A stretch of DNA of 64,000 nt from Antedon mediterranea. Taxonomy: Eukaryota; Animalia; Echinodermata. The translations under genes and the position numbers were made by a program. The notes under the pieces were generated by a model. That model was not told where the DNA came from and searched no databases. It saw nothing but the letters and a program-made list of their open reading frames with translations. The stretch spans positions 6,718,101-6,782,100 of the forward strand of contig NC_092677.1 of assembly GCF_964355755.1 (NCBI RefSeq), read 5' to 3'. Positions 4,465 to 60,425 of this stretch are shown piece after piece (the first letter of the stretch is position 1; each line of letters begins with the position of its first letter).

Positions 4465-4618
4465 ATGGAGGACGAACTGGAATTATTAACTGGAAATGTG
4501 GAAGGGGAGAATGAGCCAGATGGATCGATTCCATGGTACCGTCGTCATATAGAGGATGTTAAATATTATCTGATGTGGTTTCTGTTTTACATTGTTATAT
4601 TATTTACATTAATACTTG
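4465..4618 (+). CDS. PIEZO: Piezo exon 1 (MEDELE...FTLILG)
   Basis: ATG, hydrophobic TM1-like end, donor G|GTGAGA in phase 1 matching exon 2. Confidence 0.8.
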
Positions 4619-13600: not shown

Positions 13601-16600
13601 ATTAATAAATTAAATATTTTGTATTTATAACAGTTGAATTAATTTTGTTATAAACTGCTTTTTAGGTCTTTACAGTTAATATAACCACATCAACTATAGT
13701 AATAATAGCTATTTTCACCTGGTTGCTTTTAAATTACAGTTCACATAGTTCTATAGTTCTATTCAAAGTCACCAAGCCTTTGGAGGGCTATGGTATACTT
13801 GTACAGTATGGTACATTATTATGGTGTATATACTCAAGTACAGCATGGTACACTATGGCATAATTGTGCAGTACTGCAGGTTTATTTGTACAGTATGGTA
13901 TACTATGCTGGTACAGTGTGGTATACTTGTACAGTATGGTACATTATTATTGTGTATATACTTAAGTACAGCATGGTACACTATGGCATAATTGTGCAGT
14001 ACTGCAGGTTTATTTGTACAGTATGGTATACTATGCTGGTAAAGTGTGGTATACTTGTACAGTATGGTACATTATTATTGTGTATATACTTAAGTACAGC
14101 ATGGTACACTATGGCATAATTGTGCAGTACTGCAGGTTTATTTGTACAGTATGGTACACTATGCTGGTAAAGTGTGGTATACTTGTACAGTACACTAATA
14201 CTTATATACAGTATGGTACACTATGGTATTCTTGGATACGGTGTATGTTATGAGTATGTTGTACAATAATATACTTTGGTATGCTGGTACTGGTAATCTT
14301 ACCGATCTATTGTTCTCTTCTTATCTCTCACTATGGTGTATAGTCCACAACATCAAAGAAAAAGGTTTGTTTTTGCATGAATTTTAATTTCTTTTTTCAA
14401 ACACGCATGCAGTGTATTAGCGTTGATAGTCTTCTAGCATTTCTGACTTTCTATAGTATTTTCTGTCTGTGCATGTATAAACTTTCTATAACTATCATAT
14501 TTTCTTTTTACACCTTTCCCTAACAGATAGAAACTAGTTATAATGAACTCAGACTTGTATGTATTTATAACCTCAAATTCTTAAATAGAGCTGTAACTGA
14601 CATATGCATGAGTTATTCAACATAGTTTTGTGACATCAAAAACATTCTTTCAACACAGAATTATGCATATTCAGCCATACATTCATATTAGCCTTCATTA
14701 GCCTCATCTTTATTATTATCTTGGAACCTTTATGCTTAAACCTTGGTTCCCACTAGGAAGAACGTATTAGCGCAGCGCATTATTTTTGACCAATCATACT
14801 TCAATCTGTCATTTGTAATTAGTCAACTTACTTGTGCTGTGCTAACGTTCTAGTGGGAACTAATAGTACTCCTTACAGTATTAATTTGTCTGTGCTGTTG
14901 AGTCTATTTGTCAACATCTTCTAAACCTAACATTAATCTACTTATACTATCTATGCTGCCTTTTACTGTAGTACTTTTCAAATACATGTGTTGCAATATA
15001 GTGTGTGCAGTTTCATTTGTTTAGACCTCCTTAACAAAGCCTTCACAAATGCTTTATGTTAATGTTATGTTTTTGCTTGAAAATCATGGAACTGGAAGAC
15101 TGTTTTTTTTTATACATAAATGTATATTGTTCCATCCATCCATTTTCAGCAATATAAAGTTTGCATGATGAATAGCCCCAGTAAACGTTTTTAAAGTGTA
15201 CTATGAGTTCCCAGAAAGAAAATGTATATAGTTCAATAAGTAGTAAAATAAGAATGTTTCAATGTGGCATAACAATAAAAAAAAACTAATCTTTATCTAA
15301 ATTCCTTTTTGGAACACATGAGCCACCCACTTCTGTGTTGATCATTGGCCCATAGTTTCCTCGTAGGCTATTTGCCTCATTGTCAATAAATAATTAAATC
15401 TCAAAAACCATATTTCTAGTAATTGTAGCTACATGCTATTACAACATACCTAAATATAGCAAAAAAAAAAAAAAATTCACTGAATAATTAGATTTTTTTA
15501 ACCTTTCCAGCTTCTTGTAGATGAAGATACAAGAGGAAGCTCTCCTGACTACCAGACCATGGACAGTCCACCAGCATCAGAGACATTAGTCCATGAAGAG
15601 GGTACGTCCTATCAGCATCATGATAGAACAGATAGTGACATGAGCGCAGGGGTGGAACATCCAAAAGCGAGTCCTTTGGGTACACTCGTCGCGTACATCA
15701 CTAAGCAGAGCTACATAGCTGCTCTTATACTAATGATGGTGAGTGATTTAACTACAGGCTTGGCTTTAGGAGATAATGATGGTTTTGTCTACTTGGATAG
15801 AATTGCACAGGGTTTTTAATCCTGTATACTAAGCAAGACATATTTTTTCATTTTTAATGTGTACAATTGTTAGGAATTCAATGGTAGGAACAACCTGCTA
15901 AATTGTTAGGTAGTGAAAGAAAAAAAAACAGATAGGAAGCTTTTGATTTGCGATGACTGAGGACTGATGACCAACATTGGTTAGGTCAGTTGATGTGTCG
16001 TCAGTCATCTGAACCTTAATCATCAAACCTGTGTCAAGGTGAGGAGTGAAGACACACGTCCTAATATTCCTGCATACACACATTGAACTAACATGACATA
16101 GTAACAAATCAAAAGCTCTCTGTACTAAAGAATTCTATTTACTGTATATGCCACTATTTAATTTCCGCGATTAGGAGCCTTACTAAATATCGACAGTTAT
16201 GTAGAAAAGTAGCCTTTAATTGAAAAGTTAAAACTCAGAAGAAAATTGACACACACTTATAACATATCGTCTCTAGTCAGTACCGCCACAATCTGCAATG
16301 TTTCCATCGTGACAGTTTAAAACATCGACAACTTCGACATCAGTTGAAGTTTTAATTTATCAATGTAATTCTTTAGATCATTCAGGAAAATTTTTTACCT
16401 TTTGTTTATTGATTGACTATTAAAATATATTTCCTTTTGTCATTTAGGCATGGAGTATCACCTACCACAGTTGGATGTCCTTCATACTTCTTCTCTGGGC
16501 ATGTGCTTGCTGGATAATTCCAGGTTCGAGAAAGTGCGCCCTGTACAGCTCACCTTTTCTAGTCTTTTACACAGAGTGTCTGATCATTATCCAGTTTGTG

Positions 16601-19600
16601 TATGGATTGAATTTGACAGAAGAGGAACTGCCGGAAACAACAGACAGTGGAGTGAATCTGAACGAGATAGGTCTTCAGAAATACGAATTTCCGTGTACCG
16701 TATTAGCAGTAAAGGTAATAACTATAATACTATAATACTGTCATAAAACTTATCCCGAATTATCACTCTACTATTGTCCGTGAACCTAAATCTTTGTCTA
16801 ATCTCTCCCTAAAAATCACATGATGAAGACATAAACAAGATAGAAAAGTTAAATTTATATTCCAATAATTTTTTTTTTTAAACAATAAGAATAAAACAAA
16901 ATGTGAAAGTCAGAAAAGAAGTCTCAGTAGCATATGCAGTTATGTTGATATAAAGTTTGTCGTACACCACATCATAGTTCTGAAAAACTTTTGAGTTTCT
17001 CGACGTGTCTATCAGTATAATTTGATTGTCCTCGGGAGTGAGATAGATAAATATTTTCACATTCTTTATATCAACATATTTGATTTCGCTATGCCAACCT
17101 TCGAACAATACATATGCAGTTAGTTGGTCAGACTAATTAGATTAGAATACCCTCCTTATAAAAACAATGCAACACTGGTTCTTTGTGTTAAATGGATGTT
17201 AATTCCTTACATATTTAATTGTTTACTTACAGATTCTGTATACATGCATGTTTTGGCTAACACTTCGCCAGTTCTGTCGGGAAGCTAAGCTACGTGAACT
17301 CGACCATCACCAAGCTGCAGATGGCATCATTCTTCAGCCGTTCGGAATGATTTTCTCTGATCCAACGCATGAAGTTCAAGGTATTTCTTGACGAATTTAA
17401 TCAAAATTAAGCGCATTTTCGTTTCCATATAAAAAATTCCTACTATCCCAAACACTAAAAGGTGGATCAAAATCAACTACACTCATTCTAACTCGCGCAA
17501 AACATCCTAAACCATTGCCCGGGATTGGATTGTGCTCCTAATTATGACATTCTTTTTACTTTTATTTATAAAAATACTCTTTTCTTTACAGCTTTAGCTG
17601 AAAGGACAGACACTACGGACCAGGTTGATACTGTAAAGAGTGAAACTATGATGATCATAGGCAGTGCCATTATGGACTTGATAGCCAAGTACTGGATCCT
17701 GCTGTGTGGCGGCATGTTTCTTATAGTTAGTCTGCAGGACAACGTAGATTGTTTTAAGATAATCTACATGGCGCTTTTCTTGTTCATCATGACCATTTTT
17801 GTTGTAAGAAATATTTATGTTTATTTTTAGAAATCTTAAAAAGCCATTCAATAAATTAAGAGAAGCTTTGGACTTAATAGCTTTCAACAGTGGCAGTGTG
17901 CCTGTTTTTTACTAGGCAAATTGTTTGAGTGCATCGAAACCATAATCTTGTACGCGTACGTATGAATACTTTCATATTCCAAATACCTTTCTGTGACAAA
18001 TTCTAATTGATGGAAATGAAAATTGCAGCTATTTGCCTAGTGGAAAACGGCTTTAGTGTTTTATTTTATATAATGTGGTGGCAGTATATATTTAATTGTT
18101 TGTTTGGTAATTTTATTTTCGATCTATAGAAACTACAGATACAAACAAAAGATTTCCCTTATACAAAAGAAGTTGTTTTGTATTGTAATATTTCAAAATG
18201 AATACAGGAGTTTAAATATTTTATACAAGCTCAATGGAATTTCTTGAATTTTTGGAGAAATAAATTTGACTTTGACTTTAGGATTCACCTTAAAACTAAT
18301 CATGGTTCTTATCATGTTTAAATTAAGTATAAAATTGTAAAACTACCTCAAAACTCAACAAATTTTTATTTTATCAGTTTTCCTGGCGCCTGTTCCGAGG
18401 GATTGTGTATTTGTTCTGGTGGGTTGTCGTCATCTATTCCATGATAGTACTTGTTCTCGTCTACACGTTCCAGTTTGAAGAATTTCCTGGAATATGGCAG
18501 AATGCTACCAAACTTAATAATGAAACGTAGGTGTTATGTGTTTTTTTTTAGATATTTATTTTAAGCCCATTTAACAATGATACATAGATAAAATATACAT
18601 TTCTTCTATAGAAAACAAAAAAAAATATAAAAAGAACTATAGAAAAGCTAATGTCTCTGAGAAAGAAAAACTATTTTGTTGTAGAAACATTTTTATTGTT
18701 TAAAGCCTTCCCTTCCAGATCTATTTAGGATAATAATTAAGTATATAAGGAGTCTCACATAACTAAAAATAAAATGAACATTTTAAAAAATAACAACTGT
18801 GGACCATTTTATTTCAGAATCTTCTGAGACCTTAACTTAGCCCATCAGAATTTTTTTAAATCTAATTTCCACTCTATTTATGGTCAATTTGTTGTGTCTT
18901 TCACAGGTTAAACGACATAGGTCTGGCGGTATTTAACACATCAGAACTGTTTTTGAATTTACTTATTCCTACATCGTTTATCGTTGTTGTCATGGCTCAG
19001 ATTCACTATTTCCATTCTGTCTTTCTAAAATTAAGTGACATCAAAAGACCTAGGTAATGGTAAAATTTTAACATAATAATAATATGTTTATATAGCATTT
19101 GTTGTACTTCACATTATTACCCCGGTCATTGGATCAAACATGTATGAACAGCTACCATAATTATGCAGCTATAATCACCGCAATTGTGTTTAATCTTACC
19201 TTGCACCCATTTACACCTGGGTGGAGAGGGCAAACATATTAGTGTCTTGCATAGGACACCAGCAATGCGACAAGCGTTGATCTCTAACTCTTGATTCTAC
19301 GATCAGAAGTCCAATGCCTAAGGCACTGCATCACTCATATTTATAGGGAAAATAGGTCAGTTAATACCCAATTTGATTTATTTTTATACCATACAAGAAC
19401 AAATACAGATAAAAACGCAATCATTTTGCATGGTGACCGGGATAACCCTCTAAATCGCCAAAAGGGGACTTGTTCCCTGAGGGGTCTCCAAATCTCAATG
19501 AGTTTTATTGTCGAGTCGAGTGGCCAAACGGATAAGTGCCGCCGCTGCTAACCATAGCTATACAATCGGCACACGTTCAAGCCACTCCTCGACCATAATC

Positions 19601-22600
19601 TCAAATAATGACTTAAAACTGGAGGTCCAGTGTACACATCTGTACCAGTACTTATTTCGGAAGAGTAGGAGATTACCCCGGTGTACTAGTCTATTCAGCT
19701 CCTGTCGTCGTGGACAGATGAACAGGCACCATTTGGTGGCAGCGTTCAACATGTAGAAACCCTTAGGGGAGTAGAAAGTTGTGGTATGTGTCGTCCACAC
19801 CTGTGCTCAATCATACATCAACTTGGTTTTTTTATATAGTGATGGTAACTACAGTACACCCGCTGATGATATAGAGGATAATGATGAAGGTATAAAAGAT
19901 GAAGTTGATGCAGAATCAGAACAAAGCAAAGGTGAGATCATGTGATGTTTTTCTGAAAATCTCATTATAACCAATTAATTAAATATTTTAAATAGTTTTT
20001 GTACAATAAATAAGATTTGTAGCACAACAATAGTGAAATATTTTAAGACCGTTAAAATGAAAACTCATCTTTCTTGGTGAATAATACTGTATAAAAATGT
20101 TTTTAATCGCATCAATTTTTATGTTGGTGGCTTTTATGCTGATCTTGAATATTCCTAGAAAAAACTGCTAGTTACCTGTCTCTGTATGCTTTGTATTGTT
20201 TTCCTGAATAATTTACAAATAAATAGATATAAATTTGAATTTTAAAGGTAAATTTATCGGTGTTTTGATCAAGTGTTTAATATTTGTATACAGTATTTTA
20301 AGATCATTTTGCGTTTTATTCCATAATGCTTGGATTTTTTGCAGCTAAAAAAAGCTTGAAGCTATACCTAGCACAGCTGTTCAAGACAGGTTTGGCCTAC
20401 TACCACAAGATAACGTCTACACTGTGGAGAGTCATTGAAATTCACATGATGAAAGTTGTCTTCTTTACTATTATCATGGTAGCATGCCATGAGGTATTTA
20501 TACTTTCTATATAAATTGGAATATCAAATGCTAGGCCTTGCAAAAAGTCAGATTTTAAGAGTAGAGTAGAGCATTGAACCTTTCATGTCTCACTCAATTC
20601 TCAACATTTTTACAAACAATGTTTTATGCTCATGCAATGGAACAAATAATTTCATTTCTTGAAAGAGGACCATTTGTTCTATTTTCACCTCATGAACTTA
20701 TTTGTACTATTGCACTCATTAAAATTAAATCTGGTTATTTTGATATTTGAGCAAGTGAGGTCTACATCTGAAGCTCTGTCTACACTATCAATCTGTATGT
20801 GACAAAAAAATGTGATGTGCCCATATATGGACATGATGATGTCATATAACTACCATGTTTGGGCATATCACTACCATATTTGGACACATCACACTTTTTT
20901 TGTCAAACTAGTTTGATAGTGTAGACAGAACTTAAGTAACATGGAAAATATTTTGTTTCCATGATGGATTTTAAGCACTCTTGTCTTGTATAGGTCACAG
21001 CAGTGAACTGTGTGTTTTTGTTCCTGATGTTCTTTGCCATTCCTGTCCGGAGCCTTCAAAGACTCTTCTGTCTGATCGCCATCATCTGGGCATCGATCGT
21101 CCTGCTCTGCAAGATGATCTATCAATTGAGTTTTGTAGAAATTGATGTTGAGCCAAACGAAAACTGCACAATACAGGTAATGTATGTACTGTATATTGCA
21201 GGGACTGCCTCGTAAACATCTACATTAAAACAAATTAAAATCATATTATTGCAGTAAATGTATACTGCATTCAGTGCAGTAGAATAATTTTTGACAGTGA
21301 TCCCTTAATGTTACAGTTATTCGTTTATTATGTTATCCATCAATTTATCCTCACGGTTATCTTTGGGCTGATGAACTTTGCTGTCATGCACGTCATTCTT
21401 GAAGTAGTTAGTAAATCATAACCATGATGCATCATTATGCCCTGACAAATTTTGGTTCGCACTGTTTCCACATTTAATGCGTAACAATGTGTGTCATTAT
21501 TGCACGTATTGTCATGCATATGTTATGTATAGTACACGCCTTGTGTGCCCAGTATCACCCGCATTGTTACGTATGCTATTCCACATTGTCTGCATGGGCA
21601 ACCTATATGCATATCATTCAAAAACCACCTACCGTGCAATCATGATCGCCATGTCAAGAACTAGTTGTGAACTGCACGCCAATGATACGCATACGTTACG
21701 CACAGTTCACAAATTTAGAAAGGAACAAACATGTTGACCATTTGTACCCACATTTTATGCATTGTCCCACAAGTTGCCACACACGATTCCTGCATTGTCA
21801 CGCATGCAGTGTAGGACCGAAATTTCAACAGGCTTTACTAATTTTCTTTTCTGCAGTTATGTTTAACTTAGCAGTTAGTTATATTACAGTTATTGAATTC
21901 TTTTTAGAGTAAAAGCACTGCAGACTGGCTTGGTTTTGAAATCCTAGATAAAGAAAGTTTTCCTGAATATGTACAAGTAAGTAATCAGTTTGCATTTTTT
22001 TAAATTATAGAATAGAAAATTGGTATTACAATACAAATGGATTATGTTAAGTACCACACAGTAGTTTCAACTCAACAAATTAAATATTAAGAGACTTTAG
22101 GAAAGCATGACCAAACAATAGAAGGTGCATATAGACATAGAAGACAATTCCTTGTAAGATACAAGTAATTTAAATAACAATAGATGTATATTGAGACAAC
22201 AGTACTAATTGCATAATATAAACAGCTTGCCTTCTCTACTTTCTTTGTATCCTTTGTTTTTATATTCATAACCAAGCACCTGAAGATTGAGGTACTCCTC
22301 ATGAAACAGCCTGTAGTGCATTAAAATGTTATGTAAATGCATCTTTGACTATTTCTGAAGCTCTATCTACACTATCAAATTTTAGGTGACTCAAACATGT
22401 GATGTGGCACAATGATGTCATATTACTACCATATTTGGGCACATCCCACTTTTTTTGTCCAACTAATTTGATAGTGTAAATTATAGATAGATTATATTTG
22501 TTATGTGATCACCTGTATCAAGCATTTGGTTTTCTTCCACAGGGATATGTGTTCATAATTGTAGCCTTGATTTTGAACTCAATTGTCACCTTGCATCAAA

Positions 22601-25600
22601 AGCAACATTACTATGATCAAGGGAAAGCAGTCCCAAAAGAGGTCATTATATTTGAAGGGGTCAACAGAGACAACGCCGACGAGGGCCTGGTCAATATGTT
22701 TAAGTTTATGGCTAACTACGGCTTCTATAAGTATGGTCTTGAGGTATAGTAATATGCATGGTTTCCCCCCAGCATTTCATGAGTTTTTGTTGGCGACTAC
22801 TCCCCCGAACATCATTCATCAACCCTCCGGGAGGCAGAACTTCAATTTTAGACCTGGATTAGACATTTATTGATGGCGCCAATGACACAATGATTTTCGA
22901 CAAACATAATTCTCAAAATATTTACTAAAAAGCTGAACAGTTCATTAGTACCATTCACTTTACCATTCAATAGAACTAATACTGAACGACATGTTATGTA
23001 TGTAATTAATATGTAATCAACCAATCAAAATAGTAATGATACACTCTAATGTATTATACAATTTTCTATTGATTTCTGTTTTCAGATGTCATACATAATG
23101 ATTGTGATAACGGTGTGCATTCGTCTTGACATATTTGCCATCGTCTACATCACGTTCCTTTTGATCATGATCTTCTTGGATCGCAAGGTCGTGATGGTCA
23201 TCTGGCCGATCTTCCTCATTGTCTTGGCCATTCTTCTACCAGTCACCTATTGTCTGTGCCTAGGACTGCCGCCCATTTTTTGTATCAGTGAGTTTTGAAA
23301 AATAAAACATAATTTTAACAATAATTTTTTAGTGGTTTTGCCACCTTTAAGAAGGACAGGAATTAAATCACTTATGGTTATCCTTGGCAATATGGCTAAA
23401 TTTAGAATACTTTTACTATAATAATAAGTTTATTTTATTGATTTTTTTTTTCAGATTACATTTGGGATGGTTTGAATAAACAATTAGTAACTTGGCTGTA
23501 CCTACCACTATATGACCAGCCCCTCAATGCTAAGTTTATCATAGGTAAGAAATACAGTACAAACATTAGAAGATCTAATCAATTGTTTATATTTTAGCTA
23601 CTTTTTATACCCCTTTTCACATTAAACACTCTGAATAAATAGCCAGTGTCTCCGAGGTTCTACAGCTTGGGAGAGGTTTAGGTTCATTCACATCAATTCT
23701 GTAAAGGTGCCCTTATGTACGACATGGAATTCAATTCAACTGTGTTGACAAAATGTCAACATAAGCTTAGTTGCTTTCAGTTGCCTATGTTCTATTTTTT
23801 CCGGAACTGAAAACCTTGAATCGAGTCACACATGCGATATGGGTTACCGGGATCCGTTCGCTTTTATCAAAAAGGGCTTGTGCATACTGGTTCCTATACA
23901 ACTACGAATTGCATTGCGCGCGCCGTAAGGTAACCACGATTAGTTACTATCAGTTCCAGTGGCATAATGGCTTGTACACGGATTCCTTTCTGTTCTGTTC
24001 AGTTCTGGTTAGTTCCGTTCAGTTGCTCAAACTTTTTACATAAGCACTCTTGCCCAACTAGTTCCTTTGAGTTGAGTTGAGTTCCATGTTCAAATACGTT
24101 AAGATGTTGAAAGCTTAAATACAGCCTCCTGTGTTTCCTTATTTTCTCATATATAATATTCCGCTCTAGATGATAAATATGTTAAATAAATAAACTTTCG
24201 ACCGAGGGAGATCCTTCTGACTCTAAACAACATTAAGTAACTAGATTGTACACTTTTCCTTTTCAGCTGATTTCTTTCAACTGCTGTTAGTTAGTCTTCA
24301 ATGGCAGGTATTCCTGAAGGAATCACAGACAGGATTTCCTGGAGGCAACAACAACGTGGCAAAGGACACGTTCAAAGATGATGCCGAAAGAATCACGTCA
24401 AATCCTGTACCAAACTTTACCTTTAACAAGTATGTATCAATAGAAATTTAACAAAAAGAATGTGGCAGGGTCATTGCACATTATAGCAATAAGGTTGATC
24501 ACGTTCAAGGCTATCCTCATCTATTGTAAATGTGGGGAATAACCTGCATCTTGCAGTCCAACTGAGCTGTATTGCACATATTTGTGGATGACGCACCTCA
24601 AAGGATCCCTTTGTGTCAAGTGCTTCCACCAAACGGTGTCATTCTGTCCACAACTACAGGGGCTGAAATGGACCAGCATACCATGGTAATTCCTTACTCT
24701 TCCGAAAGATGAACTGGATTATTTAAAGTGCACACGTGCCAGACTTGACATCAAAACAATGGTCGTGTGTCTTGAACCTGTGCTGATTGTATAGCTATGG
24801 TTTACAACGCCGCTTAACTGCTCGGCCACTCAACTTGATTAGAACAAATTTATAAGATAAGATAAAACTTTTAAATGGAGGTCCTGTATATCTGGCTCAT
24901 GTGCAATGCATTTTTCAGAAGGGTAGGGGTTATCGCGGTGTTTTGGTGTGGAAACTGGAGGCATGAAAGGTAGCTTATTGTGTTGTTTAGCCTAGTATCC
25001 ACAGGTTATTCTCACAATGTGAGTTCTAACTTTAGAAATATTAAATAATTTTAAAAATGTACAATGTTTTTGTTTCATTCTAGATCATACTTGGATCTTT
25101 GCAAGGTATGTCTGCCATAAATGTTATCATACTTTTTAAATATTAAATTGAACTGTTGACCTTTTATAATGGTAATGCAAGCCCTGATTGTATGTATTAC
25201 AATTATTTTTTAAATTTCAATTTTTTTGCTTTTTTATAAATCTTAAATTTTAATCCTTGTTTAAATGGTATAGATTTTATAAAATGTATATATATTTTTT
25301 TAATTGTTTATTTTATATGTTTTTTACATCACTTTTATTCTTCTACCCTACCTTTACCCACCAGAGTGCTGTCTTAGGGTACAATTTCTGGGTGTGCCTG
25401 GCTATTCTGTACATTACAGCCACAAGCCACACCAATATTCTAGGTGTAGGCTATCTTATCATAGCCTTCTCCTGCCTAGGTTTTGGCCGTAACTTACTCA
25501 TGAAACCTATGGCTGAGGCTGTCAAGTTGTAAGTACAATAAGTGCAAAAGCCACTGATTGCTGCCTGATGTAAATTAACCCACGTATTTGCATAGTAATC

Positions 25601-28600
25601 TGCATAATATTAGCATGTTAGAATATGATTGGCATAATTATCTGGGAAATACATAAACTATGTCAAATAAGTGTGTAAATATCAATTTAATATCAACCTT
25701 ATAAACAAAATCTATAGATTAATATCAAAGCACATCAGCAAATTTACACTGATTATTTTATTATCTTCTAAAAAGTCTTCAAATTATTAACCTATTGAGG
25801 AAAAAAATTTGATATCCTATCTTGACAAATTAAGCTTGGTTCGCACTAAGATGCAACGCAAAGACATAAGTGCAACACAAGGAGTTGACCAATGACAAGC
25901 GACGGTTCAAGTAAATGCTTGTGATTGGTCCTTTGCGTTGCGCTTACATCCCTGCATTGCATCCTAGTGGAAACTAAGCTTTAAATTATGTAATTTGCCA
26001 GATAATGTTTTGTAATAGCTAGATTTGTTTCGGGATTGTATATGAAAGAGAAATAATTTTATCTGGCAGTGATATCTGGTGATGATCCAATTGGCTATTA
26101 ACTTAGTGTCTCCCTCATCTACCTTCCCGAAACAAAGCTTGCTATACTGTATTGTCTTTCTCTTTTGCTAAAGCTTCTTTCCCATCATGCCCGAACTCGC
26201 TATGTCACCCTGAGAAAAATATCATAGAAAATGGGTTCATTGGTAAAGCATTGGGTCATTCACAGCATAATTGTACGATTTGGATTCGAATTCGGAAGCC
26301 ATTTTTACCTGATTTTTTCAATTGACCAATCAAAAGTGTAACACACAGGATAACCAAATTCGTACTCGATGTGAAAACATGCTTAACACTATTATTTTCT
26401 CAGGGTGCTGGACTGAATCTGGACACAATGTGAAAGAAGCTTAAAACATCATTATGGTGTTTGGCCATTTAACTACTGAATATTTATACCACAGCACCTA
26501 ATCTTATTACAGCTATGCACTATTACCACAACTAACCTAGATATGATTTAACATGTTTGCTGCCAGTTACATGATATTATTGAAGCAAAATTCCCCAAAG
26601 CCCTATTAAGCTGGTTCCCACTTGGACATGTAAGTAAGTAATTTGACCAATCATGACACGATGGATCATCCAAGCTGTTGCATGTGATTGGGCAACTCAC
26701 TTGCATTGCACTTATGTCAAGAGGAACCAAGCTTTATGCTGTTGCTGTATCTTCATGACAAGTGAAAAGGAAGAATTCTTTCGAACCTTATCAAAAAACA
26801 AATTCTAATGGCATGTCTGCAACCAAGGTTACAGACATGCCATTGGCTACCTAGGCTACAAACATGCCATTACAACAAGCAAATGTCAACCTTCAATTTG
26901 GTGTTAATAATTATTATAATGTGAATGTCTCTGAGCCAAATTTAACCTTGATGCAATTTGTTTTGTACCCTTGGAAGGCCTGGTCACGCCTGATATCACA
27001 CACTATTCAGCAAACAGGTTTTACAAAGCTTAAACTTCGCAGAATCTCAACACTGGAAAATTATCTTTTAATTCAATTTTCTTTACCTTTATTTGTTGCA
27101 ATTTGCTTTTGTTCTTTTTGTTTTGTTTTGTGTTTTTTTTTTCTGTATAACATTTCTTTATGTCATTTGTTTTTGACACTACTTTACAGACCTTAGTATT
27201 TCAATACATGTTTTACATCACCATTGCTATGATGTTTGTGACGGGCACATCTCGTATCAGCTTATTTGGTATGTTCTATGTCCTTTTCGCGATGTTCTAC
27301 TTTTTATACGGTCCTGATTACCTGATACGATCTAGACGATTCCTCCTAAGAGCGTAAGTCCAGTAATCACCATCTAAAACCATTTCAAATTTCACAAAAT
27401 TCATTTAATAGAAGTTTGAGATTTTATCATTTTACTCAAATCATAAAACACGCAAATCATTTTGGATCTTAACTGTTTATGGTTTTGTCAAGGACTTAAC
27501 AACTTAACATTACTTAACATTGAATATTATCAGTTTGTTCTTTTGAGATTGCTGGATATATCTAAAATTATGAAATACTAATTATATTCAGAAATGTAAA
27601 ACATTATTGTTTAAAAATGTGTCTGTTGCACTTTTCTTTTCAAACTTTTTAGAATTGTTTTGCAATACTAACATCACAATCATTTCAGCTTGTGTTTTTA
27701 TCTAAATAAACAGTAAAGTAGTGTATTATTTATAATTATGTAATAAGTATGGTTGAGAATTTTATTTCCTTTTGGAAACACAAGTCACAAGGTTATCACA
27801 AAACTATATTTACTAGCAATAACACTACCTAAATCTAACATAAGTTTTGTAGACTGGCAATTAACTAATCCGAAAAATAGATTCACATTAATATTAACAG
27901 ACTGCAGTAACTTTAAGGGAGTTACTGCAGCAATCATATTACGGTAATATATACATTCACTTTTTGCATGGCATGCTTTTGTGTGTAATAGTGTATTACA
28001 TGGAATGATGACCATTGATAGTACTGTTTAATAATATTTTAATTATGTTCAGCAAAAAAATTAATTAATGCTTCATATTAAACCTGATGAATGAATTTTG
28101 CATTTTAAAATTTGTAACTTTTATTCCTTGCATGTATCATCTCATATTTTCTCTATTGTATAATCAAAGTTTACCACATGCTTAGCATCTAATTTGTTTT
28201 TAATGCAAAGCATTCCATGTCAATTTTATTTATTTTCTTTTGTACAAATCATGAATACAAATTGATTTGGAGATTATGTCATATATCTGTCATTTCGCTA
28301 TTTGTAAGCTATTTTTTTATAGAAAATATGAGCATCAAATCGTTCGAATAAAATTTACAGATTATTTGTCTCAATAAATTATACGCTTATATAGACCAAG
28401 CTTTTGGAAACTTCTATATTTTTAGTCTATCCAAGAGTGTTGGCGTAAGTTAAAAAGAGACTCAACTATTACTAATAACTTGTTAACTCCTATTTTAAAG
28501 ATGGAATCTAGTTATATTATACAACCTGTGCGTAGTGATTATGAAAGTAGGCCTGCAGATTCTAACATGCGCCTACATAAATGATGTCCTGGTTGAGGGT

Positions 28601-31600
28601 AACTGTCTGTGTGCTCTCATTCAACTCCTTGGAGTTGTATGTTTACAGGAGGGTTACACACCTGAGCCTGATATTCATAGTGAGTAAAATGCTAATCAAT
28701 CAATCAATAATAATTTATTTCTCAAATAAAAACAAAATACAGTTAACATTTTCTAAAATAATATATAAAAAATTAGAAAATGGGTACCCCACTATAGAAG
28801 CCAAGCTTTAAAATGTGGAGTCCGGGCAACATATTTAAGTAAGGTAAGGTAAAAAACATGATAATGAACAAAAAAGGCATTTAACTTAAACTAATGCAGT
28901 TATAATTTAACTTAAGACCGATATATTATTAACCTAAACAATAATAGTAGAAACAAGGTATTCATGTAATTTGGACTTAAAACAAGGTATAAAATTGATA
29001 ATTTTTAGTTCTTCTGGTAAAGTATTCCATATTTTGGGTCCTTGAAAAGTAATATCATGCTTGCTTGCTAATAATTTAAAGTCAAAAGCCTCAAAATGGA
29101 GTTCCAGAAAAGATGATGGTCTTCTGATTTATCATTTGAATCTTTATCCAGTTGGTGGATCATTGTTGTTCAGATTTTTTTTAATGAATGATCTGATTAA
29201 AATATGGGGAAGGGAGAAATTTATGCTTCAACCAAACACCCTTTTCAGCAAACACCCCTCCCCCCCACCACCCCATCAAAAATAAATCCACATAGTTTTG
29301 AATAATTAAATTTAGTAATGTTTTATAATGCCAATTGGTTGACAGAGTGCCTGTTAGCATTACATTTTCCTTTCTAACACCGGACGAAGGGCACCGACTT
29401 CTCGCCAACTTCGGAACTTCGTCCTGGACCTGACCTGTTATTTTATAACCACAATTTCTTTTGTGTTTTTAAAGGTTGTGAATGCGTGCTGCCCGAGGAT
29501 GAGAGCGGTCTCAGTTGGGATATTGTCTGTTTCTGTTTTCTGATCATCCAAAAGAGAATATTTACAAGTTACTATTTCCAGTACATTGTTATTGATCTTC
29601 AAGAAGAGAAGAAGCTAGCATCAAAGTAAGATATTAGGAAGTGACCTATGACCTAGAACATATGGTGGTACTATTCGCATATTCCTAGGTCCTACATCAA
29701 CCCAAATCGTAATGTCCCTATTGTGTGGTTTTAGTAGGCAATGACATAATCTAATTAATGGGTTTGTGACTTCTTTCCCCCAGCTTTAGTGGTGAATTCC
29801 TCTCTTAGAGTTAGTCTTCTAAGATAGGACTTTAAATAGTAGGTCTGGTGTTTATCATCTACTTAAATAAAGCCTACCTAGTAATCTTTTTTGAGGTGAG
29901 TAGCGATTACCACCTGACATACTATCACTGCCTCTGTCTTTGGCATCCATATGTATAAATGTCGAGGTTTACATGACCCTAGAGAAACATGTGTAAAATC
30001 TAGTCCACCTACAGTATTAGCATGTTATGTGAATTAAGAATTGTTATCTTTTGAGAGCAGTGCTTTTCAGCTACTTTCTTATTTGGTCATATTTATACAG
30101 ATGTCTGATGTCACAATGTTCAATTTCAGATCATTGTGGATGTGGTTTGCTTTCTTTGAATTTCATTTATGATTTTTTATTACAGAGGAGCAGAATTGAT
30201 CAATGAAATCTTAGCAACTAAAGTGCTTAACAACAAAAAAGTGGAATCCCTCATTCTGGAAAAAGTTAAGCTAAAGTATGTTTTTAAATTTTGTATTTAT
30301 ATTTATGTGCACTATGTATTATTTAGTATTATGTAGTATTATTGTTTGATTGTTTTTTATGGTGGGTTACTATTAGAAGGGGGGTTACTATTAGAAGGTG
30401 GGTTACTATTAGAAGGGGGGTTACTATTAGAAGGTGGGTTACTATTAGAAGGTGAGTTACTATTAGAAGGGGGGTTACTATTAGAAGGGGGGTTACTATT
30501 AGAAGGTGGGTTACCATTAGAAGGTGGGTTACCATTAGAAGGGGGGTTACTATTAGAAGGTGGGTTACCATTAGAAGGTGGGTTACCATTAGAAGGTGGG
30601 TTACCATTAGAAGGTGGGTTACTATTAGAAGGGGGGTTACTATTAGAGTGTGGGTTACTATTAGAAGATTTACGGTAATTGATTTCCAGAAACAGATTAA
30701 CTGATTTTCACAGAGTTATATTTTCATAGCCATGTTACTGATTTGAATTTATTTTCCTTAACAAAACACAGAACAGAGAAAATTCGAGAAAAACAGATGA
30801 GGGTTAAGAATGAAGATGAGTACAAAGAGCCTTTAGACCACGGAGAAGGTAAACATTCAATTTGTCAAGGCCTTATGGACCTACAGCAGCACCACCATGA
30901 TCACCACATGTATTTCCCATACAATTTTCTTAAAATGGACCTGAAATGGATTTTCGATTTTTTTCATTTTAGAATGATGTTTTGGGGGCTATTAGGTGTT
31001 GCTAGAATGTATATTGTTACAAAATATAAATTGGCCCTTTTGAGGAAAGCCCCATTTGAAAATCAAAAAAATTCGCGGGTGACGTCACTTTGCGAATATA
31101 TTCCTATCCCTCCAATGGACAATTTGCAGTTTTTTGGCTATAACTCTTGAAATCTATGGAGTATTTTCTAAAAAATGCTTGTGCATTTGCAGAAACGTAT
31201 TTAGAATTTTTTTAGATAAAATTATTACCGTATAAACTGTTATTCATCGAGTAAATGACGATTTAAAATCTTAAAATCAACGGTTTTTTTCTGGCAATAC
31301 CAAAGTTGGCCTGGCAACGTTGTCGGGGATACAGCTCCGTGCGCAATGATGCGTATCCATATTTTCCGTTCGTGTATACTGCTAAAATGTGTTAGTTTCT
31401 TTAGTTTTTAGTTTAGCAGAATTAAATTAGTAATATGAGATGATAATTTATTTGTCACGAATCAGGCAGTTCGAAAACGAATTTTATTCATATTTTACTT
31501 TGGCTTGACAATGAGCGCAGCAAGTTGTTGATATTGCTTTGGTCCTTGGATGCACATGAAACGGAGCCTCGCCGCATGATGTAGGTGGTGGATCGACTCC

Positions 31601-34600
31601 GCGCGCTGGATTGGGGGCCTAGGCCTAGTAAAGGTTTGGGAGGTACTAGGCCTTCTAAATTCGGGTTTTAGAACAAACGATAAATTAGTATTAGTGTCAA
31701 CGCTTCGCGTATCTTTCCAGGCCGTCGATCATTCACTGACTATCGGGCGGCATACACGCTCTCGATATCATCGTGTGTATATGTGACGTCGTGAATATAG
31801 AGGGCTTCCGACGGCCGTTGAAATAGAATATTGCAATGGCGTGAGTAATTTTCGCTAATTTACCATGGTATCTTAAAATTTCGTTTTTACTCAAAATACT
31901 ATACATTTTGTTTTTATTTGTATGGGTTTGTGTTAATTTGATACATTTAAATAACATGTGTGAATTTCTTGAAAATCGAAATTCCATTTCAGGTCCATTT
32001 TAACTTAAGTTTCTTAAAATTTCTATAAACTAGAGGGTGAGCTCGCTTCGCTCGCTCCCCCTCTAGGAAGTGTAGACGATGGTTCTCGGAATGATAATGT
32101 TCTCCTTATACATTTTCTGTCGGTTACCATTATTGAAAATGCTTGACATTCGTAAAACTGAACTACTTTGTTTCACAGTGTTTTAGATGATTAATAACAT
32201 TTTAAAGTATAGTTTTTATTGTTTGGTAGGGCCCTTTGGGGAGGCGGAGGTCATTTGAGGGAGGTGCTTATTCGAGGGATATATGTTAAATTTTTTAGTT
32301 CTAATAATATGGTAACATTTATAATCAAATGAAATCCTCTCATAGATATGAAAAGTGGTAAAAAAGAATAACAAATGCTTGGTAAATTGCAGATAACAGT
32401 GCGGTGAATTCTACTACAAATAGTATAATTGTGTTATTATAAATATGTGGATGGACGTTTATTAGATAGTTGGGTTGTGGGGGGGGGGGTTATTATTCAA
32501 AGTGATGTTTTATTGGAGAGGCGTTTATTCAAATGAATACCATCCTAATAATTATTAATACATTATTTAATTTAATCATCTTTTGAAACTAACTGCCGTG
32601 ACAGAGTGGGCCCAAGAAAGAAGACATTACGGCTTGCAACATGGGCAGACATCTCGGTCCTAACGGGACACAGGAAGATAGCCTACAGTTATTCCTGCAA
32701 GCTTACTCAATAAAACTCAGCTATTGGGATTTCACTCAAAAAATGTCTTATCAAATCTCCCTATGTAATTTTATAATACTATTCCCCACAATATATTCTG
32801 ATTCTTTATGGCGTATATTTAATTTGATCTTTATTAATTTGCAGTATAATTCCTATTATTTAACTACTGTACCTTTTAAAATAAACAAAAAACTGAAATG
32901 GCTATGATTAATGGCCAATTTTTTTTTCGTCTTCCAAAGGGACACTGTATTGATTGATGGAAAGTGCCTGTTTCCAGTCACCTTTAGGGTCAAATCTATT
33001 ATTTTAACTGCTCCCTTGTGTATAAAAGAGAGAAAATATTTGAAACTAAGGTGAACTTATCTTAAACCCGGAAATTACTTTGACCGGGAAGAATTGAAAT
33101 TGAGAGGAAAATCCAATGTTGAAATCATAAATGTTGTTAAAAAACTCTTTATAATATCTTCCTAAGATATAAATATGGAACAATAGCGTCGGCGTGCACA
33201 CTAATGTTATCAAATCTACGTTTCGCGGTACATCTCGGATAGATAAAGGTAGGTATCCAAGGCGGAGATTTGTACCGAAGTTTTTGCATTGTGCTCGCCT
33301 ATGTCAGAATTAACCATAATTTATATATAGATGATTATGCTTCGCTAAAAAAGATGAGGGTGCGAAACTAGTCCTTGGCTAACAGATGATCTAGTTTTGT
33401 CAATGCTTGAACGTGATGTACTAAAAAAGAAAGCATCTAAAACTAACACATTTGAACTTTGTAAAACTAGGTAAAAATAAGTTAAATGCTGAAACAATTA
33501 AACAATTGGACACAAAAGATTTTTTTTAATATGGGAAACTTTGAAATATATTGTTCCAGCAAAGAGTATAAGTACAGAAATATCCAACCTATAAACAAGT
33601 GAAAACAAACTAACAGCAGACTAAAATAGAATCTGACCATGCAAAAAATATCTTGCAAGAATTCCCAGATTAGTTATTGAAGATAATACTTATCAAAGCA
33701 GGGACCTACTTCAATTTAGTTTAGAATACATTTATAAACAATTAAACGCACTCTCTGTAAGTAAAGCAACAATCTTGAATGAGCTTCCAGCTAAAATGCT
33801 CAAGTTGGTTATTGATAAAATTTTTGGACCTCTCACTTATTTGGTAAATCTTTCACTTTCAACTAGTACTTTTCCGAGAAAATGCAAATGTGCCAAAATA
33901 TTGCCAGTTTTTAAAGGGGGAGATAGGACAGACTATCTATGAGGAGCCTATTCACCACAAGCTTTGCTTTCTTTTAGGCTCCTCCACTTTATATTTATAT
34001 ATTTGTAAAGTGAAATAAATAAATGAAATGAAATGAAAAATGACTAGCAATTACAGACCCATATCAATTTTACCGATTCTTTCTAAAATTATCAAGAGGG
34101 TTGTATTAACTAAAAAAATTTGGATTTCATCCTAATTTCTTAACTGTATCTTCACTATTAAATATTACAGAAGATTGGATAAATGACATGAAAAGTGGAA
34201 AGTATATTGGTCAGTCATGATTGATCTAAAAAAAAGCATTTCTATACTCTAGACCATAGCATACTTATAGACAAGCTTAAATCATTTAACTTAGATGTCT
34301 AATTGGTTTAAAGACTACCTTTGTAATCGTACGCACTTAAATGGCGACCGATTACACAATATTGCTCTCGCTGTAGCATAAAACAAAATCCATGTCTTTT
34401 TTTTTTATAGCAAAGGCACAGACCCATGCATTTCACTTGCTAAATCCAAAGTCCCTTACAAAATATTGCTCTCGCTAGTAGCATAAAACAAACTTTATAC
34501 AAGTACATTTGAGAATACTTAAGAAAAAATTTGCAAATAATTCTCAGGTGGAACTCGAACCCACTACCTCCAGATCACTAGCCTGGCTTTCATACCTCTA

Positions 34601-37600
34601 GACCACTGAGCTTGCACTGATGGCTAGTGGTTAGATTTAAGCCTAAGTAAGCAGCGGGTATGGCACGAACAGGGTTGTAATTGTATTAAACTATTGTGGT
34701 ATAGCTTTGGGTCCGGGTGTTGAGTAATTGATCATATGTTTTGCCCTACTCTGACGTAATTTGTAATTATCACTAAGTACATTTTAAAATTTTAGTAATT
34801 ACTTGCAAATTTTAAGTATTCTCAAATGTACTTAGTGTAAAGTACAAATTACGTCCGAGTAGGGCAAAGCATATGATCAATTACTCAACTGCCTGACGCA
34901 AAGCTACTCTACAGTAGTTAAATACAATTACAATCCCTTATAATTACACAATATTGCTCTCGCCAGTAGCATAAAACAAAATCCATATATTTTTTCTATC
35001 TAGCAAAGGCACAGACCCATTCCTTTCACTTGCCCCTTACATTTACACCATATCGCATAAGTAGCACAAATGTGCTTTTTTTTTTTGTAGCTATCCGTGG
35101 AACAGCAGGTTACTACATGTTCATGGATGAAAGCGATGATGACTTTAGTGACCTGGAAGATGAATCAATCCATGAATATGGTCAGCCAGAAGAAGCTATT
35201 CCTTCAGGAAAGATGAAGAGAAGACATTCAGTCAGTGAATTGGAGAGGAAGCAATCTCCATGGCAGGTAAAGTCATGGCAGTAGAATTCTAATTTTATAT
35301 AAGGAATAATAATAATAATAATTTGAAGTTCTATTTTACTAGGATTTTGTTTATGTTCTCATTTTTTAGTTGGCTTTCCAAGCTTTTATGACAAGTCCAA
35401 AAACAGCACTTGAAAATGATGAAGCTATGTCGCCAACATCACCGACAGAACCAGGTAAGTAGAGAATTGTATTGTTTGTTTTATGAATCATTATTGGTTA
35501 ATTCTCTTTTATCCCATCGAGACATAAAACCACTATTGTGGCTTCCATAGTTTAAAAACAGGAGCTTAAATTTACCAGTAGGTAACCCACTACTCGTTGG
35601 TGTCTCTAGTGCAAACATGCCATCCAAGCTAGATCTGTACACTAGACCTCCAGTTTATGCAAGAAGATTTGATCAGAACTGCGGTCGAGGAAAGCCATGA
35701 AATGTGCCAATATTATTTCTGTGGTTTGCGATGCCCATGTAATAACCACTTGGCCAGGAATTTCTATAGAATTCAATATTTAAAATTACAGTCATAAGTT
35801 CATTAATAATAATGAATGTAATTTAGTATTTAAGAAGACTAGTCATTAAACTAGCATCATCTTTCTAGGCCTTCCAATTATTGATGAAGAAAAGAAAGAT
35901 GATGTTGATGAATCTCAGCCAAGTACTAGCACAACAGCATTAATAGGTAAGGTTGTGTCTTTCAATAAAGACTGTCACACAAAATGAATATTTATCTGAA
36001 GCCCTGGCATCAGCTGGGAAGTAACAGCAAAACCATGGTCAGTTGATGTCATCTGTCATGGTACAAGTCTCTAATAATCTTCCTCCATAATCTCTTTACC
36101 CATTATCTGCACTTCCACAGTCACAGAGTTGATGGTCTTACAGATACAGGTCCATAACAAACATCTTCATTCATGCCATCTCCCATTATCTGCACTATCA
36201 TAGTCATGGAGTTGATGTCATCTGCCAAGGTGCAAGTATCTAACACCCGTCTTCCTCCATAATGTCTTTACCTATGAGCTGCTCTACAGCAGCCATGTGG
36301 TTGGTGGTTTTCTATGTTGCAGATTAACAATCATCTTCCTCCATAATGCCTTTACCCATTATCTGCACTACCACAGTGATAGAGTTAATGCCATCTACCC
36401 AGGTGCAAGTATCTAACACCCGTCTTCCTCCATAATGTCTTTACCTATAAGCTGCTCTACAGCAGCCATGTGGTTGGTGGTTTTCTATGGTTCAGGTCTC
36501 TAACAATCATCTTCCTCCATAATGCCTTTACCCATTATCTGCACTACCATAGAGTTGATGTCATCTGCCAAGATGTACTACCACAGCCATGGAGTTAAAC
36601 TGACAGTGTGCAGATACTTTTCAATGTTCTTCCTTCATGACATCACCAATTCTCTGCACTACCATAGTCATGCAGTTTATGTCATCTTCCAGGGTTCCAT
36701 AGAGTTGCTGGTCTTATGTCCCATTATCTGCACCACCACATACATAATGTTCTTGTTTTTACATTTAGCAATAATGATCCCCTTGCCATTTTTACCCGAC
36801 ATATTTGTTGTCATCTTTACAAACAGATGGAGAGGGAGATGAAACTGATGTTGACCTTGGTACCAAATCAGTTGATGATGCCTTAGAAGATGCTGTCGGT
36901 GGTATACTGGATACATTTATAGATGATGAGGAGGAAGAAGGTATGTGAATCATTAAATTGGTTGCCAGCCATTTATATATACTGTTCGTGGGAAATGTTG
37001 CTTGATTATAGATACTGTATTACTTTCCTAAGGCTCTGTCTATACTTTCAAACTAGTTTGACAAAAAAACTGTGATATGCTTAAATATGGTAGTGATATG
37101 ATTAAATATGGTAGTGATATGCTTAAATATGTAGTGATATGACATCATCATGTTCATATTATGGGAACATCAAATTTTGTTGTCACATGAAGTTTGATAG
37201 TGCAGACAGAGCTTAAGTAACCATGTCAAAAATATCCTACTGCATTTGCTGCAGTAACTGCATTTTGTTAACTCTTTTACCTTGTTTGGGTATTTATACA
37301 CACTGTTTATTGCAGTGACTGCCTCGTAAACTTCTAAATTGAAACAAACTAGAATCATATTATTACAGTAAAAACATTTAGTTACTGCAGTAGAATAATT
37401 TGTACACGATCCCTAAAACAGAAAAATACAAGTTTTCCTTTTCTATTCAATATTATATAATAATATGATTATGTCTTTTTCAGGCACGGGATGTTGGGAC
37501 AAATTTGTAAACATAATGAAGTTGGCGTGGAGAATATTTTTGCGCCTAATTGATTCAGTGATAGGTTACTTGGACAAAGCCTCTGAAGAGTACAGATATG

Positions 37601-59589: not shown

Positions 59590-60425
59590 TCATTCATGTG
59601 TTACACGTTCAATTGCTACGTAAAAATTGTTAACATCCTTAGGATCATACCAGCCTATTGGTCCAACTTCACAGTCTGCGCATATAAGATATTTTACATT
59701 GTCGACTACATTGGTAAATCCTATATTTTCAAATGTGTACATTCCCTCGATTCGCCAATGATCAGATAAAGTCTCTCCGTCACCAGGGGCTTGGTTTGGT
59801 TTCTTATGTTTCATATATGGTAAGAAGATCTAATAAAAATATATTTGACAAGGAATTGAAAAAAAAATGCTTTATAAAATTTAAATAAAATTTGAAAACA
59901 AATCTTGAATATTTCAATCAATGTCCCACATTTAAAAGTGCTAAAAGTTGGACTAGGTCCTAACCTAGGCCAGCCTAGCTAGCTAGGCTTAGTAGGCCTA
60001 GCTACTGTCTAGAGATAGGCCTAGGCCTAGAGGCCCCCCTGGCCCCTAGGCCCTAGTTAGGCCTAAAAGTAAATTTTTTAATAAAATTATAAAATACTCA
60101 CCTCTTTTTTTTCGTATGTTGCGTTTTCTGGCCTTAACACAATACTTCCACAACGTAAACATTTTAAAGATTTGCAGTTTTTATCATCAATTAAAAGACT
60201 TTTAATATCTAGGCCTCCAGTTGCTGCAGTCGCACCCACGTCTGTGTTGTCTCCTCCCCCTTCAGCAACAGTAGCTGTTGAGCTTGCATTGGTGTCGTCG
60301 GGGCTAGCTTTGTTTGGTTCAGTAGAATCGCTTCCATTTTCTTGGTGAACATTAGCTTGAGATGCTTTTGGTGGTAAATCTTCCGCTTGAGCTGCTAATT
60401 CTTGTTTTGGGTTGATTTCTGCCAT
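59590..60425 (-). CDS. RABIF: RAB-interacting factor / guanine nucleotide exchange factor MSS4; exons 60425-60102 and 59829-59590; 187 aa
   Basis: Zn ligands CLRC and CADC; motifs FENIGFT, KYLICADCEVGPIGW, FYVAIERVTHE; phase-0 intron GAG|gtgagt...ttattag|ATC. Confidence 0.95.

Follow-up and report, generated by a model that had tools for sequence, protein, structure and literature searches.

In the feather star Antedon mediterranea, the gene for Piezo contains two adjacent, homologous, tandem-duplicated exons, which we call A and B, and the reading frame is kept with either one. We consider it probable that they form an ancient, conserved pair encoding TM25-26, from which A alone or, likely, B alone is used, and that the two resulting channels, as we predict, differ mechanically. 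The gene lies in the window, by which we mean the whole stretch of 64,000 nucleotides that was analyzed, and corresponds to XP_071959086.1 (2432 aa); its first annotated coding exon falls outside the window. Five Piezo Pfam families are found far above cut-off and in order (TM1-24, TM25-28, THU8, THU9-anchor and cap), and on the basis of these domains, and of predicted folds matching Piezo1 and Piezo2, the protein is a Piezo channel for which a mechanically activated cation current is predicted. RefSeq gives a single isoform, which carries exon A, and leaves exon B unannotated. The features discussed below are as follows.

5087..52609, plus strand: Piezo gene from residue 25 to the stop, by exon-by-exon mapping (2405 of 2432 residues matched exactly)
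24267..24429, plus strand: common upstream exon, 163 nt (end of TM24 and loop), used in the length arithmetic on the transcript contig
25084..25105, plus strand: common micro-exon, 22 nt (SYLDLCK), with a donor that can join A or B; phase 2 to 0
25274..25362, plus strand: AG-free U-rich stretch before acceptor A (91-nt zone), candidate branch points at about -67 and -115; putative regulatory role
25365..25528, plus strand: exon A, 164 nt, TM25-loop-TM26-tail, likely main form (splicing in run X1, XP_071959086.1, match to Anneissia)
25529..27189, plus strand: intron between A and B, 1661 nt, GT-AG, with dispersed repeats
27043..27187, plus strand: AG-free U/UG-rich stretch before acceptor B (147-nt zone), candidate branch points at about -122 and -17; putative regulatory role
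27190..27353, plus strand: exon B, 164 nt, alternative TM25-loop-TM26-tail, likely minor or tissue-restricted (match to Anneissia isoform X2)
28501..28679, plus strand: common downstream exon (TM27 and outer loop), phase 2

A self-comparison of the peptides of the window yielded mainly tandem repeats among the matches listed.

The initial annotation had described the two exons as equal in length and interchangeable, and we found that both are indeed 164 nt long, stop-free and of phase 0 to 2, with CAG acceptors and GTAAGT donors. As it had also reported, they align without gaps and have few residues in common: 12 of 54 residues (22%) and 73 of 164 bases are identical. This likeness is not due to chance, because none of 20,000 shuffles reached the ungapped BLOSUM62 score of 68 (mean -40.6, sd 14.6). 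Between 25106 and 28500 there are 11 stretches of 164 nt bounded by AG and GT, and only A and B are open in frame 0. Each peptide, queried alone, matches the same segment of the Piezo structures in the PDB (mouse Piezo1 1156-1204 and Piezo2 1309-1361; E 3e-6 to 1e-3). When A or B alone was used to look for homologues, no match was obtained among proteins up to 2000 aa. Outside the annotated exons, B is also the one stretch with significant likeness to Piezo, and accounts for five of the six tblastn hits there (E 4e-21 to 5e-8); the sixth has an E of 0.17. Inclusion of both exons, or of neither, shifts the frame as had been claimed: with A and B together a stop is reached at the second codon inside B, and with both skipped a stop is reached in the next exon.

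To learn which exon is spliced in, we took advantage of the contigs of sequencing run X1, a single probable RNA run of unrecorded tissue, available as contigs only, whose RNA nature was guessed and is borne out by a spliced contig. That contig is 3685 nt long and has a depth of 43.1. Immediately ahead of 28501 it carries the final 30 letters of exon A, and 28501 is located at contig position 2489, the position predicted with exactly one 164-nt exon. The X1 transcript joins A to 28501, bridging B. Among the junctions that the initial annotation had listed, 25528>28501 is therefore present in this one RNA-like run and 25105>25365 is deduced there from length and depth rather than displayed, while no B junction was seen. 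Spliced B is absent from X1, in which B occurs only in an unspliced contig at intron level (depth 3.2 versus 3.3-8.3); this is weak evidence, because contig assembly drops rare variants. X1 may have fed the RefSeq model, and the run and XP_071959086.1 are not surely independent. The idea that A is a dead or unused duplicate fails nonetheless, because A is the form that is both spliced in X1 and annotated in XP_071959086.1. It is A, and not B, that looks like the main form, and splicing of B in Antedon is a prediction; A is likely the main form, and B is likely a minor or tissue-restricted one.

Additional support comes from Anneissia japonica, which belongs to another feather-star family. Of its 14 RefSeq Piezo isoforms, 13 are of A-type and one is of B-type, and none has both exons or neither. 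Isoforms X1 (XP_033122821.1) and X2 (XP_033122823.1), both 2581 aa, differ only at 1274-1328, by 42 residues; the use of B in Anneissia rests on this one predicted isoform, which is known as a gene model only. Antedon A is identical to Anneissia A at 50 of 54 residues (93%), Antedon B is identical to the segment of isoform X2 at 40 of 54 (74%), and the micro-exon peptide SYLDLCK is the same in both species at 7 of 7. Across the whole protein the two species agree at 1874 of 2406 residues (78%), so that B falls within the range of Piezo exons, 8 of 30 having an equal or lower value, and only 4 of 30 reach the value of A. The orthologous copies pair with one another (A with A and B with B, both 100/100). 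Between A and B, identity at codon positions 1, 2 and 3 is 29, 29 and 15 of 54, near random at the third and conserved at the first two. In simulations with 0.2 substitutions per site, 1.5% of neutrally evolving copies of B were still intact with 40/54 identity; with 0.4 or more, none of 20,000 were. These distances are assumed values. The earlier proposal of an old, selected duplication agrees with these data in that both copies are kept in Anneissia and neutral decay rarely leaves an intact B, and the sequence comparison supports the conclusion that both copies are conserved and under selection. Homology, the frame constraint and the Anneissia isoforms likewise support tandem duplication with either-or use. 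The duplication probably predates the split of the two feather-star families, for which we found no published date in the literature.

Relative to the rest of the family, the two exons depart equally from the consensus. Each agrees with the consensus in 11 of 21 columns, against the family profile both rank close to the lowest scores, and the description of B as simply canonical is not borne out. Nor is LL.KP a PIEZO2-like mark, as had been suggested for A: K and P each occur in 79% of 42 non-crinoid segments and are family consensus. Both copies keep G41, Y30 and a basic residue matching Piezo2 R1361. None of 30 other exons is as far from the outgroups as these two (-0.09 versus -0.07 to +0.09), and A shows a long stem followed by near stasis, with a distance ratio of 0.084 that is the lowest compared with 0.10-0.50 in the 30 other exons; this pattern fits a new constraint. 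Complementary retention, with consensus residues of TM25 and the loop kept in B and those of TM26 and the tail kept in A, was considered and is not significant (p 0.13 and 0.10).

The placement of the segment at TM25-26 of THU7, the unit leading into the beam, was confirmed: Pfam Piezo_TM25-28 starts at residue 1118, and A spans 1140-1194. Within the segment 42 of 55 residues differ between the two forms. Both isoforms were modeled, as had been proposed, and gave normal Piezo unit folds (segment pLDDT 91-97, TM-score 0.80-0.83 to Piezo structures); the near-identity of the folds is uninformative on function because the models are driven by a shared alignment. Exon A encodes a thin TM26 with 3 aromatic residues, in which C and G replace the family F and W, and H replaces the loop R; B encodes a bulky TM26 with 8 aromatics and a tail without K-P. 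In the portions of the literature available to us, the bend of the blade is located between TM13-24 and TM25-36 (PMC7796548), the pivot of worm PEZO-1 is THU7 (PMC12951647), and in simulations TM25 aromatics and R1361, the last residue of the matched Piezo2 segment, take part in lipid sites (PMC9532583). The swap would keep the fold but repack THU7, altering stiffness or lipid contacts at the inner/outer blade bend, and the altered packing would change the tension threshold or inactivation. The pore itself is unaffected by the swap. We give this repacking, with its predicted mechanical effects, about an even chance, and a gating difference between A and B channels is a plausible prediction. 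More tentatively, the pair may act as a hinge switch, in which a flexible, thin TM26 from A and a stiff, aromatic TM26 from B at the THU6/THU7 elbow would give low- and high-threshold sensors, mixed trimers, and use in different tissues. If this were true, it would be a natural swap experiment on the blade curvature that sets the opening tension.

Concerning the choice of exon, the zones free of AG before the two acceptors are 147 nt for B, the longest of 51 acceptors, and 91 nt for A, longer than in 46 of 49 other acceptors; the median is 42. We think it reasonably likely that these two acceptors, with pyrimidine tracts that stay free of AG over an unusual length, compete under regulation, that A is taken by default, and that nonsense-mediated decay would remove double-inclusion and empty products. 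Following an old tandem duplication, A is spliced in alone and B likely so in some tissue or stage, and the outcome would be two channels of equal length whose mechanics are predicted to differ at the blade elbow. Steric hindrance, in which donor A would be less than about 50 nt from the branch point of B, is ruled out because the intron between A and B is too long (1661 nt); the candidate branch points are within 200 nt of acceptor B. U2/U12 incompatibility was likewise rejected, in that the donors are GTATGT, GTAAGT and GTAAGT and all acceptors are AG; none is a minor-class donor, judged against the U12 consensus. For docking-site/selector pairing of the Dscam type, the best duplexes (-8.5 and -14.1 kcal/mol) were no stronger than those of 12 controls (-12.9 to -19.8), a set sized for the downstream test only. 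Counts of splicing-factor motifs around A and B revealed nothing clear beyond the U/UG-rich tracts and three TGCATG.

We weighed several other explanations. Because annotation can miss an exon, as it did with B in Antedon, the duplication might be far older than crinoids, arising in an echinoderm or deuterostome ancestor, with the second exon lost or unannotated elsewhere. In a tree over 54 columns, which gave no date for the duplication, B groups with the segments of other echinoderms (SH-aLRT 93.7, bootstrap 88) and A stands apart on a stem of 1.04. The placement of A is unsupported, however, and the data reject neither a single crinoid clade of A and B (AU p 0.29) nor a position of A among the echinoderms (p 0.42). 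Other echinoderms, hemichordates, amphioxus and molluscs have one version each in their annotated isoforms, and a second version is absent from the listed isoform sets of 15 non-crinoid groups; we regard the older date as unlikely. An assembly artefact, in which two alleles or paralogues were merged in tandem, might be suspected from the fact that no single contig spans both exons. Yet in three DNA-like runs of one sample, which may be the source of the assembly, A and B contigs are at flank depth (in run X5, 254 and 275 versus 248-270), alleles would be far more alike than 22% at the protein level, and Anneissia, an independent genome, has both versions between identical flanks. We consider this explanation scarcely credible.

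It is also conceivable that A took over and that B, used in Anneissia or until recently, is now silent or fading in Antedon. The lack of B in the spliced X1 contig and in RefSeq points this way, as does a rate of change in B about 4x that of A between the two species (14 versus 4 of 54). However, B has kept its length, its frame and both of its splice sites; an identity of 74% is nothing unusual among the exons of this gene, the single listed variant of B (27309) is synonymous, neutral decay seldom leaves such a copy, and one run of unrecorded tissue cannot prove silence. Fading of B appears quite improbable. A better contender, though still doubtful, is that both exons are used and the isoforms gate alike, the swap serving lipid preference, partner binding, folding, surface delivery, or a tissue-divided need with no biophysical difference. 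Both models fold alike, both copies keep the three residues named above, and known effects of Piezo splicing are described as modest in the available part of one report (PMC12951647); on the other hand, the 42 differing residues are inside the membrane, both copies exceed all 30 other exons in outgroup distance, and the history of A suggests a changed constraint. We continue to favor a conserved exon pair giving mechanically different channels.

The mechanism by which the Piezo blades open the pore under membrane tension is a matter of debate, in which recent worm structures suggest that THU7 serves as a pivot. With A and B, nature has supplied two versions of one half of THU7, long kept by selection, in a channel of 2,400 residues that is otherwise identical. 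They provide a clean test of the role of this unit, and the A and B segments could be grafted into mouse Piezo1 or Piezo2. The finding covers two feather stars, and the functional difference is a prediction. It corrects the Antedon gene model, and adds a mechanically gated channel to the voltage-gated ones in which either-or duplicated exons have evolved repeatedly.

Such exons are well known in ion channels, including CACNA1C/CACNA1D, fly cacophony and Ca-alpha1D (PMC9741552, PMC5740500, as available in part); the Antedon copies differ from these in being only 22% identical and in belonging to a mechanically gated channel. Piezo had no matches in the accessible portion of a curated human table (supplement of PMC8373072) or in that of a fly list of 154 genes, and we found no report in the literature of a transmembrane swap in any Piezo. 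Human PIEZO2 has a 43-nt intronic candidate (hsapMXE24958264), NA in all three expression tables in the part of PMC5740500 available. Like A and B it is a predicted either-or pair in a Piezo gene, but it is a 14-residue exon near the N-terminus, without a membrane helix, and is missing from the later curated set. The Anneissia models contain the same A/B pair as automatic, unremarked predictions, and a literature search found no paper on it. According to the accessible text of PMC12490864, Piezo1.1 arises by skipping of exon 30, which encodes the intracellular lateral plug segment, and Piezo2 has cassette exons 18, 19, 33, 35 and 40. As is predicted for Antedon, splicing of one Piezo gene tunes the channel, with cell-type differences; those cassettes, as described there, add or remove segments, whereas Antedon replaces a membrane helix pair at constant length. 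The other four spliced segments are usually described as cytoplasmic. In C. elegans, isoforms G, K and L of pezo-1 likewise provide, from one invertebrate gene, channels with different blades (PMC12951647; bioRxiv 10.1101/2021.05.24.445504), and the word "mutually" is absent from the available portions of both texts. As far as those portions describe them, the worm isoforms lose whole N-terminal units through later starts, whereas Antedon substitutes helices, and the unit described there as the pivot of PEZO-1, THU7, is also the unit to which exons A and B belong.

Two exons of the Antedon Piezo gene, here called A and B, share length, frame and splice-site sequences:

25365-25528, + strand: exon A, 164 nt, CAG acceptor, GTAAGT donor, frame 0 open
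27190-27353, + strand: exon B, 164 nt, CAG acceptor, GTAAGT donor, frame 0 open

These coordinates, lengths and splice sites, called in the initial annotation, were confirmed directly in the sequence. The two peptides share 12 of 54 residues, and the exons 73 of 164 bases. Their likeness is not a matter of chance, because the alignment score of 68 was reached by none of 20,000 shuffles, and among 11 stretches of the form AG, 164 nt, GT in the region only two, A and B themselves, are open. Each exon matches mouse Piezo1 1156-1204 and Piezo2 1309-1361. Either exon alone continues the frame of the upstream micro-exon (SYLDLCK) into the common downstream exon at 28501; both together, or neither, give an immediate stop, so the either-or constraint that had been proposed holds. 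We conclude that a conserved, mutually exclusive duplicated exon pair replacing TM25-26 of Piezo in feather stars is real.

Representative proteins were searched with a nearby exon as query, which returned P0001 (100% identity over the query), which the source record gives as XP_071959086.1 of the feather star Antedon mediterranea. This protein was mapped exon by exon to 5087-52609, with 2405 of its 2432 residues exact; residues 1140-1194 are exon A, and B is unused. Because the Pfam domain Piezo_TM25-28 starts at residue 1118, the A/B segment comprises the first two helices of THU7, where the initial annotation had placed it. Apart from the annotated exons, B alone in the window resembled Piezo. 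A, B and their flanks have equal depth in DNA-like runs of one sample, possibly the source of the assembly.

The gene model has other notable features. The RefSeq first coding exon lies outside the window, and an unannotated alternative first coding exon is present at 4465-4618 (+). An ATG opens it at 4465, a donor follows at 4619, and its frame continues into the exon at 5087; its product shows homology with the N-terminal part of Anneissia isoform X13 (36.5%, E 5e-8). The 22-nt micro-exon at 25084-25105 (+) is identical in Anneissia at 7 of 7 residues. The table of PMC7796548 includes a splice-donor mutation of human PIEZO1, S1153Wfs21; since PIEZO1 residue 1153 aligns with the first full codon of the micro-exon, the preceding intron may be common to humans.

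The region is covered by five runs from two studies, none recorded as RNA, of which four were examined. One of these, run X1, is probably RNA and contains a spliced contig of 3685 nt at depth 43.1. The 30 letters preceding 28501 in this contig match the final 30 of A, which occur once in the window, and 28501 stands at 2489 in the record, as the upstream exons and a single 164-nt exon would place it. Exon A is therefore included and B skipped in this contig, the micro-exon-to-A joint being deduced from the length sum and bin depth. B occurred in run X1 only in an unspliced contig of depth 3.2, comparable to the intron background of 3.3-8.3. No spliced B was seen among the run X1 contigs, which does not make B silent, because rare forms drop out of contigs.

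Comparison with Anneissia japonica (Comatulidae, as against Antedonidae for Antedon) revealed both versions among its gene models. Of its 14 RefSeq isoforms, 13 carry an orthologue of A (50/54 identical) and one an orthologue of B (40/54), between identical flanks; none carries both or neither. Isoforms X1 and X2, each of 2581 aa, differ solely at 1274-1328. RefSeq models of this kind generally rest on RNA reads. The Anneissia set (P0174, P0201-P0213) also has three alternative N-termini and short in-frame gaps, presumably in loops, near 455, 468, 489, 1740 and 1761. In 15 non-crinoid groups, only a single version of the segment was found among the listed members containing it: Asterias (8/11), Patiria (6/6), Acanthaster (1), Diadema (6/7), Lytechinus (10/15), Strongylocentrotus (7/14), the Holothuria cluster (2/2), Saccoglossus (2), Haliotis (7), Owenia (5), Tubulanus (8), Crassostrea (1), Ptychodera (15, among 15 members listed of 20), Branchiostoma (16; 15 listed of 45, plus one) and Octopus (16; 15 listed of 23, plus one). 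The remaining members were fragments without the segment. A hidden second exon in these groups is possible, since B is unannotated even in Antedon.

Compared by codon position, A and B agree at 29, 29 and 15 of 54; silent positions are close to random, and coding positions are retained. Between Antedon and Anneissia, A is 93% identical and among the most conserved exons (4 of 30 others are as high); B, at 74%, is ordinary (8 of 30 as low or lower; 78% over the whole protein). In a simple simulation of neutral decay at 0.2 substitutions/site, 1.5% of runs left B intact and as similar as it is; at 0.4 or more, none of 20,000 did, these being assumed distances. In a tree of 25 rows the A copies of the two species group together, as do the B copies (support 100/100); B nests among echinoderm segments, and A has a stem of 1.04 with very short tips. 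A duplication confined to crinoids is neither rejected nor shown by the AU test (p 0.29). The ratio of within-crinoid distance to distance from other echinoderms is 0.084 for A, below all 30 other exons (0.10-0.50), and 0.32 for B. Both copies lie 9 points further from outgroups than single-copy echinoderm segments, exceeding any of the 30 other exons, and score 58-64 bits on the family profile against a median of 82 for 42 held-out natural segments, only one of which scores lower. Both copies thus left the consensus, and A then froze, a pattern that fits specialisation.

AlphaFold models of THU6-THU7-beam, built for Antedon A and Anneissia B from alignments of 57 and 56 rows, both have two helices across the segment (pLDDT 91-97) and resemble Piezo structures at TM-scores of 0.80-0.83; both forms are predicted to be foldable, the models being no test of function. 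Aromatic residues in TM26 number 3 in form A against 8 in form B. In A, a loop R (83% conserved) is replaced by H, and F and W (93% and 90%) by C and G; missing from B are W in TM25, G and F in TM26 and K-P in the tail. In structural reports, the blade bends between TM13-24 and TM25-36, with TM25 among the L-shaped helices (PMC7796548), and PEZO-1 pivots at THU7, with TM28 running into the beam (PMC12951647). Simulated lipid sites include TM25 aromatics and R1361 (PMC9532583). The most likely reading, to which we give roughly an even chance, is that the swap would alter packing at the blade elbow and hence the tension threshold or inactivation. Its main rival is that A and B gate equally and differ in lipid, partner or trafficking behaviour.

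Where the choice between the exons is concerned, the 1661-nt A-B intron rules out steric blocking, and GT-AG sites with ordinary donors throughout rule out a minor-spliceosome mismatch. No docking pair stood out. Long AG-free zones commonly mark regulated exons; with some acceptor positions snapped by rule, the zone at B is 147 nt, the longest of 51 acceptors, and that at A is 91 nt, exceeded by 3 of 49 others (median 42). Acceptor choice is probably regulated, with A as the default, and nonsense-mediated decay probably acts as a safeguard. Such decay is relied on by 14 of 19 C. elegans clusters whose exons are not a multiple of three in length (PMC4165533).

The A-B intron also holds inverted repeats of 18-48 nt (26015-26442 and 26803-26875), in or beside multi-copy sequence, which are probably transposon remnants. 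Elsewhere, very high-copy dispersed repeats occur near 20900-20940 and 22358-22460, and tandem arrays at 30330-30710, 41060-42260, 45800-47170 and 54400-56800, in introns and downstream of Piezo, produce long spurious open frames. Downstream of Piezo on the opposite strand is an Mss4/RABIF-like gene (59593-60425, -; PF04421, E 2e-27 for 59593-59829). Two long open frames at 61784-62757 (+), with no Pfam match, resemble exons encoding a protein that spans the membrane once; its outer domain would contain cysteine and its tail would be rich in proline.

In Antedon B is probably an alternative form, and a gating difference between the two forms is plausible. Piezo is absent from a fly list of duplicated-exon genes and from a curated human table (PMC8373072, supplement searched); human PIEZO2 has one predicted 43-nt candidate in another, N-terminal exon. 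No report of the pair was found in full-text searches of the open literature, judged from the papers listed; genome-paper supplements could hold one. Many ion channels have either-or exons that arose by duplication (PMC9741552; PMC5740500). The Piezo variants described in the papers examined are cassette exons or truncations (PMC12490864; PMC12951647; bioRxiv 10.1101/2021.05.24.445504). The pair belongs to a known class, is new for Piezo so far as searched, and was already implicit in the Anneissia gene models.
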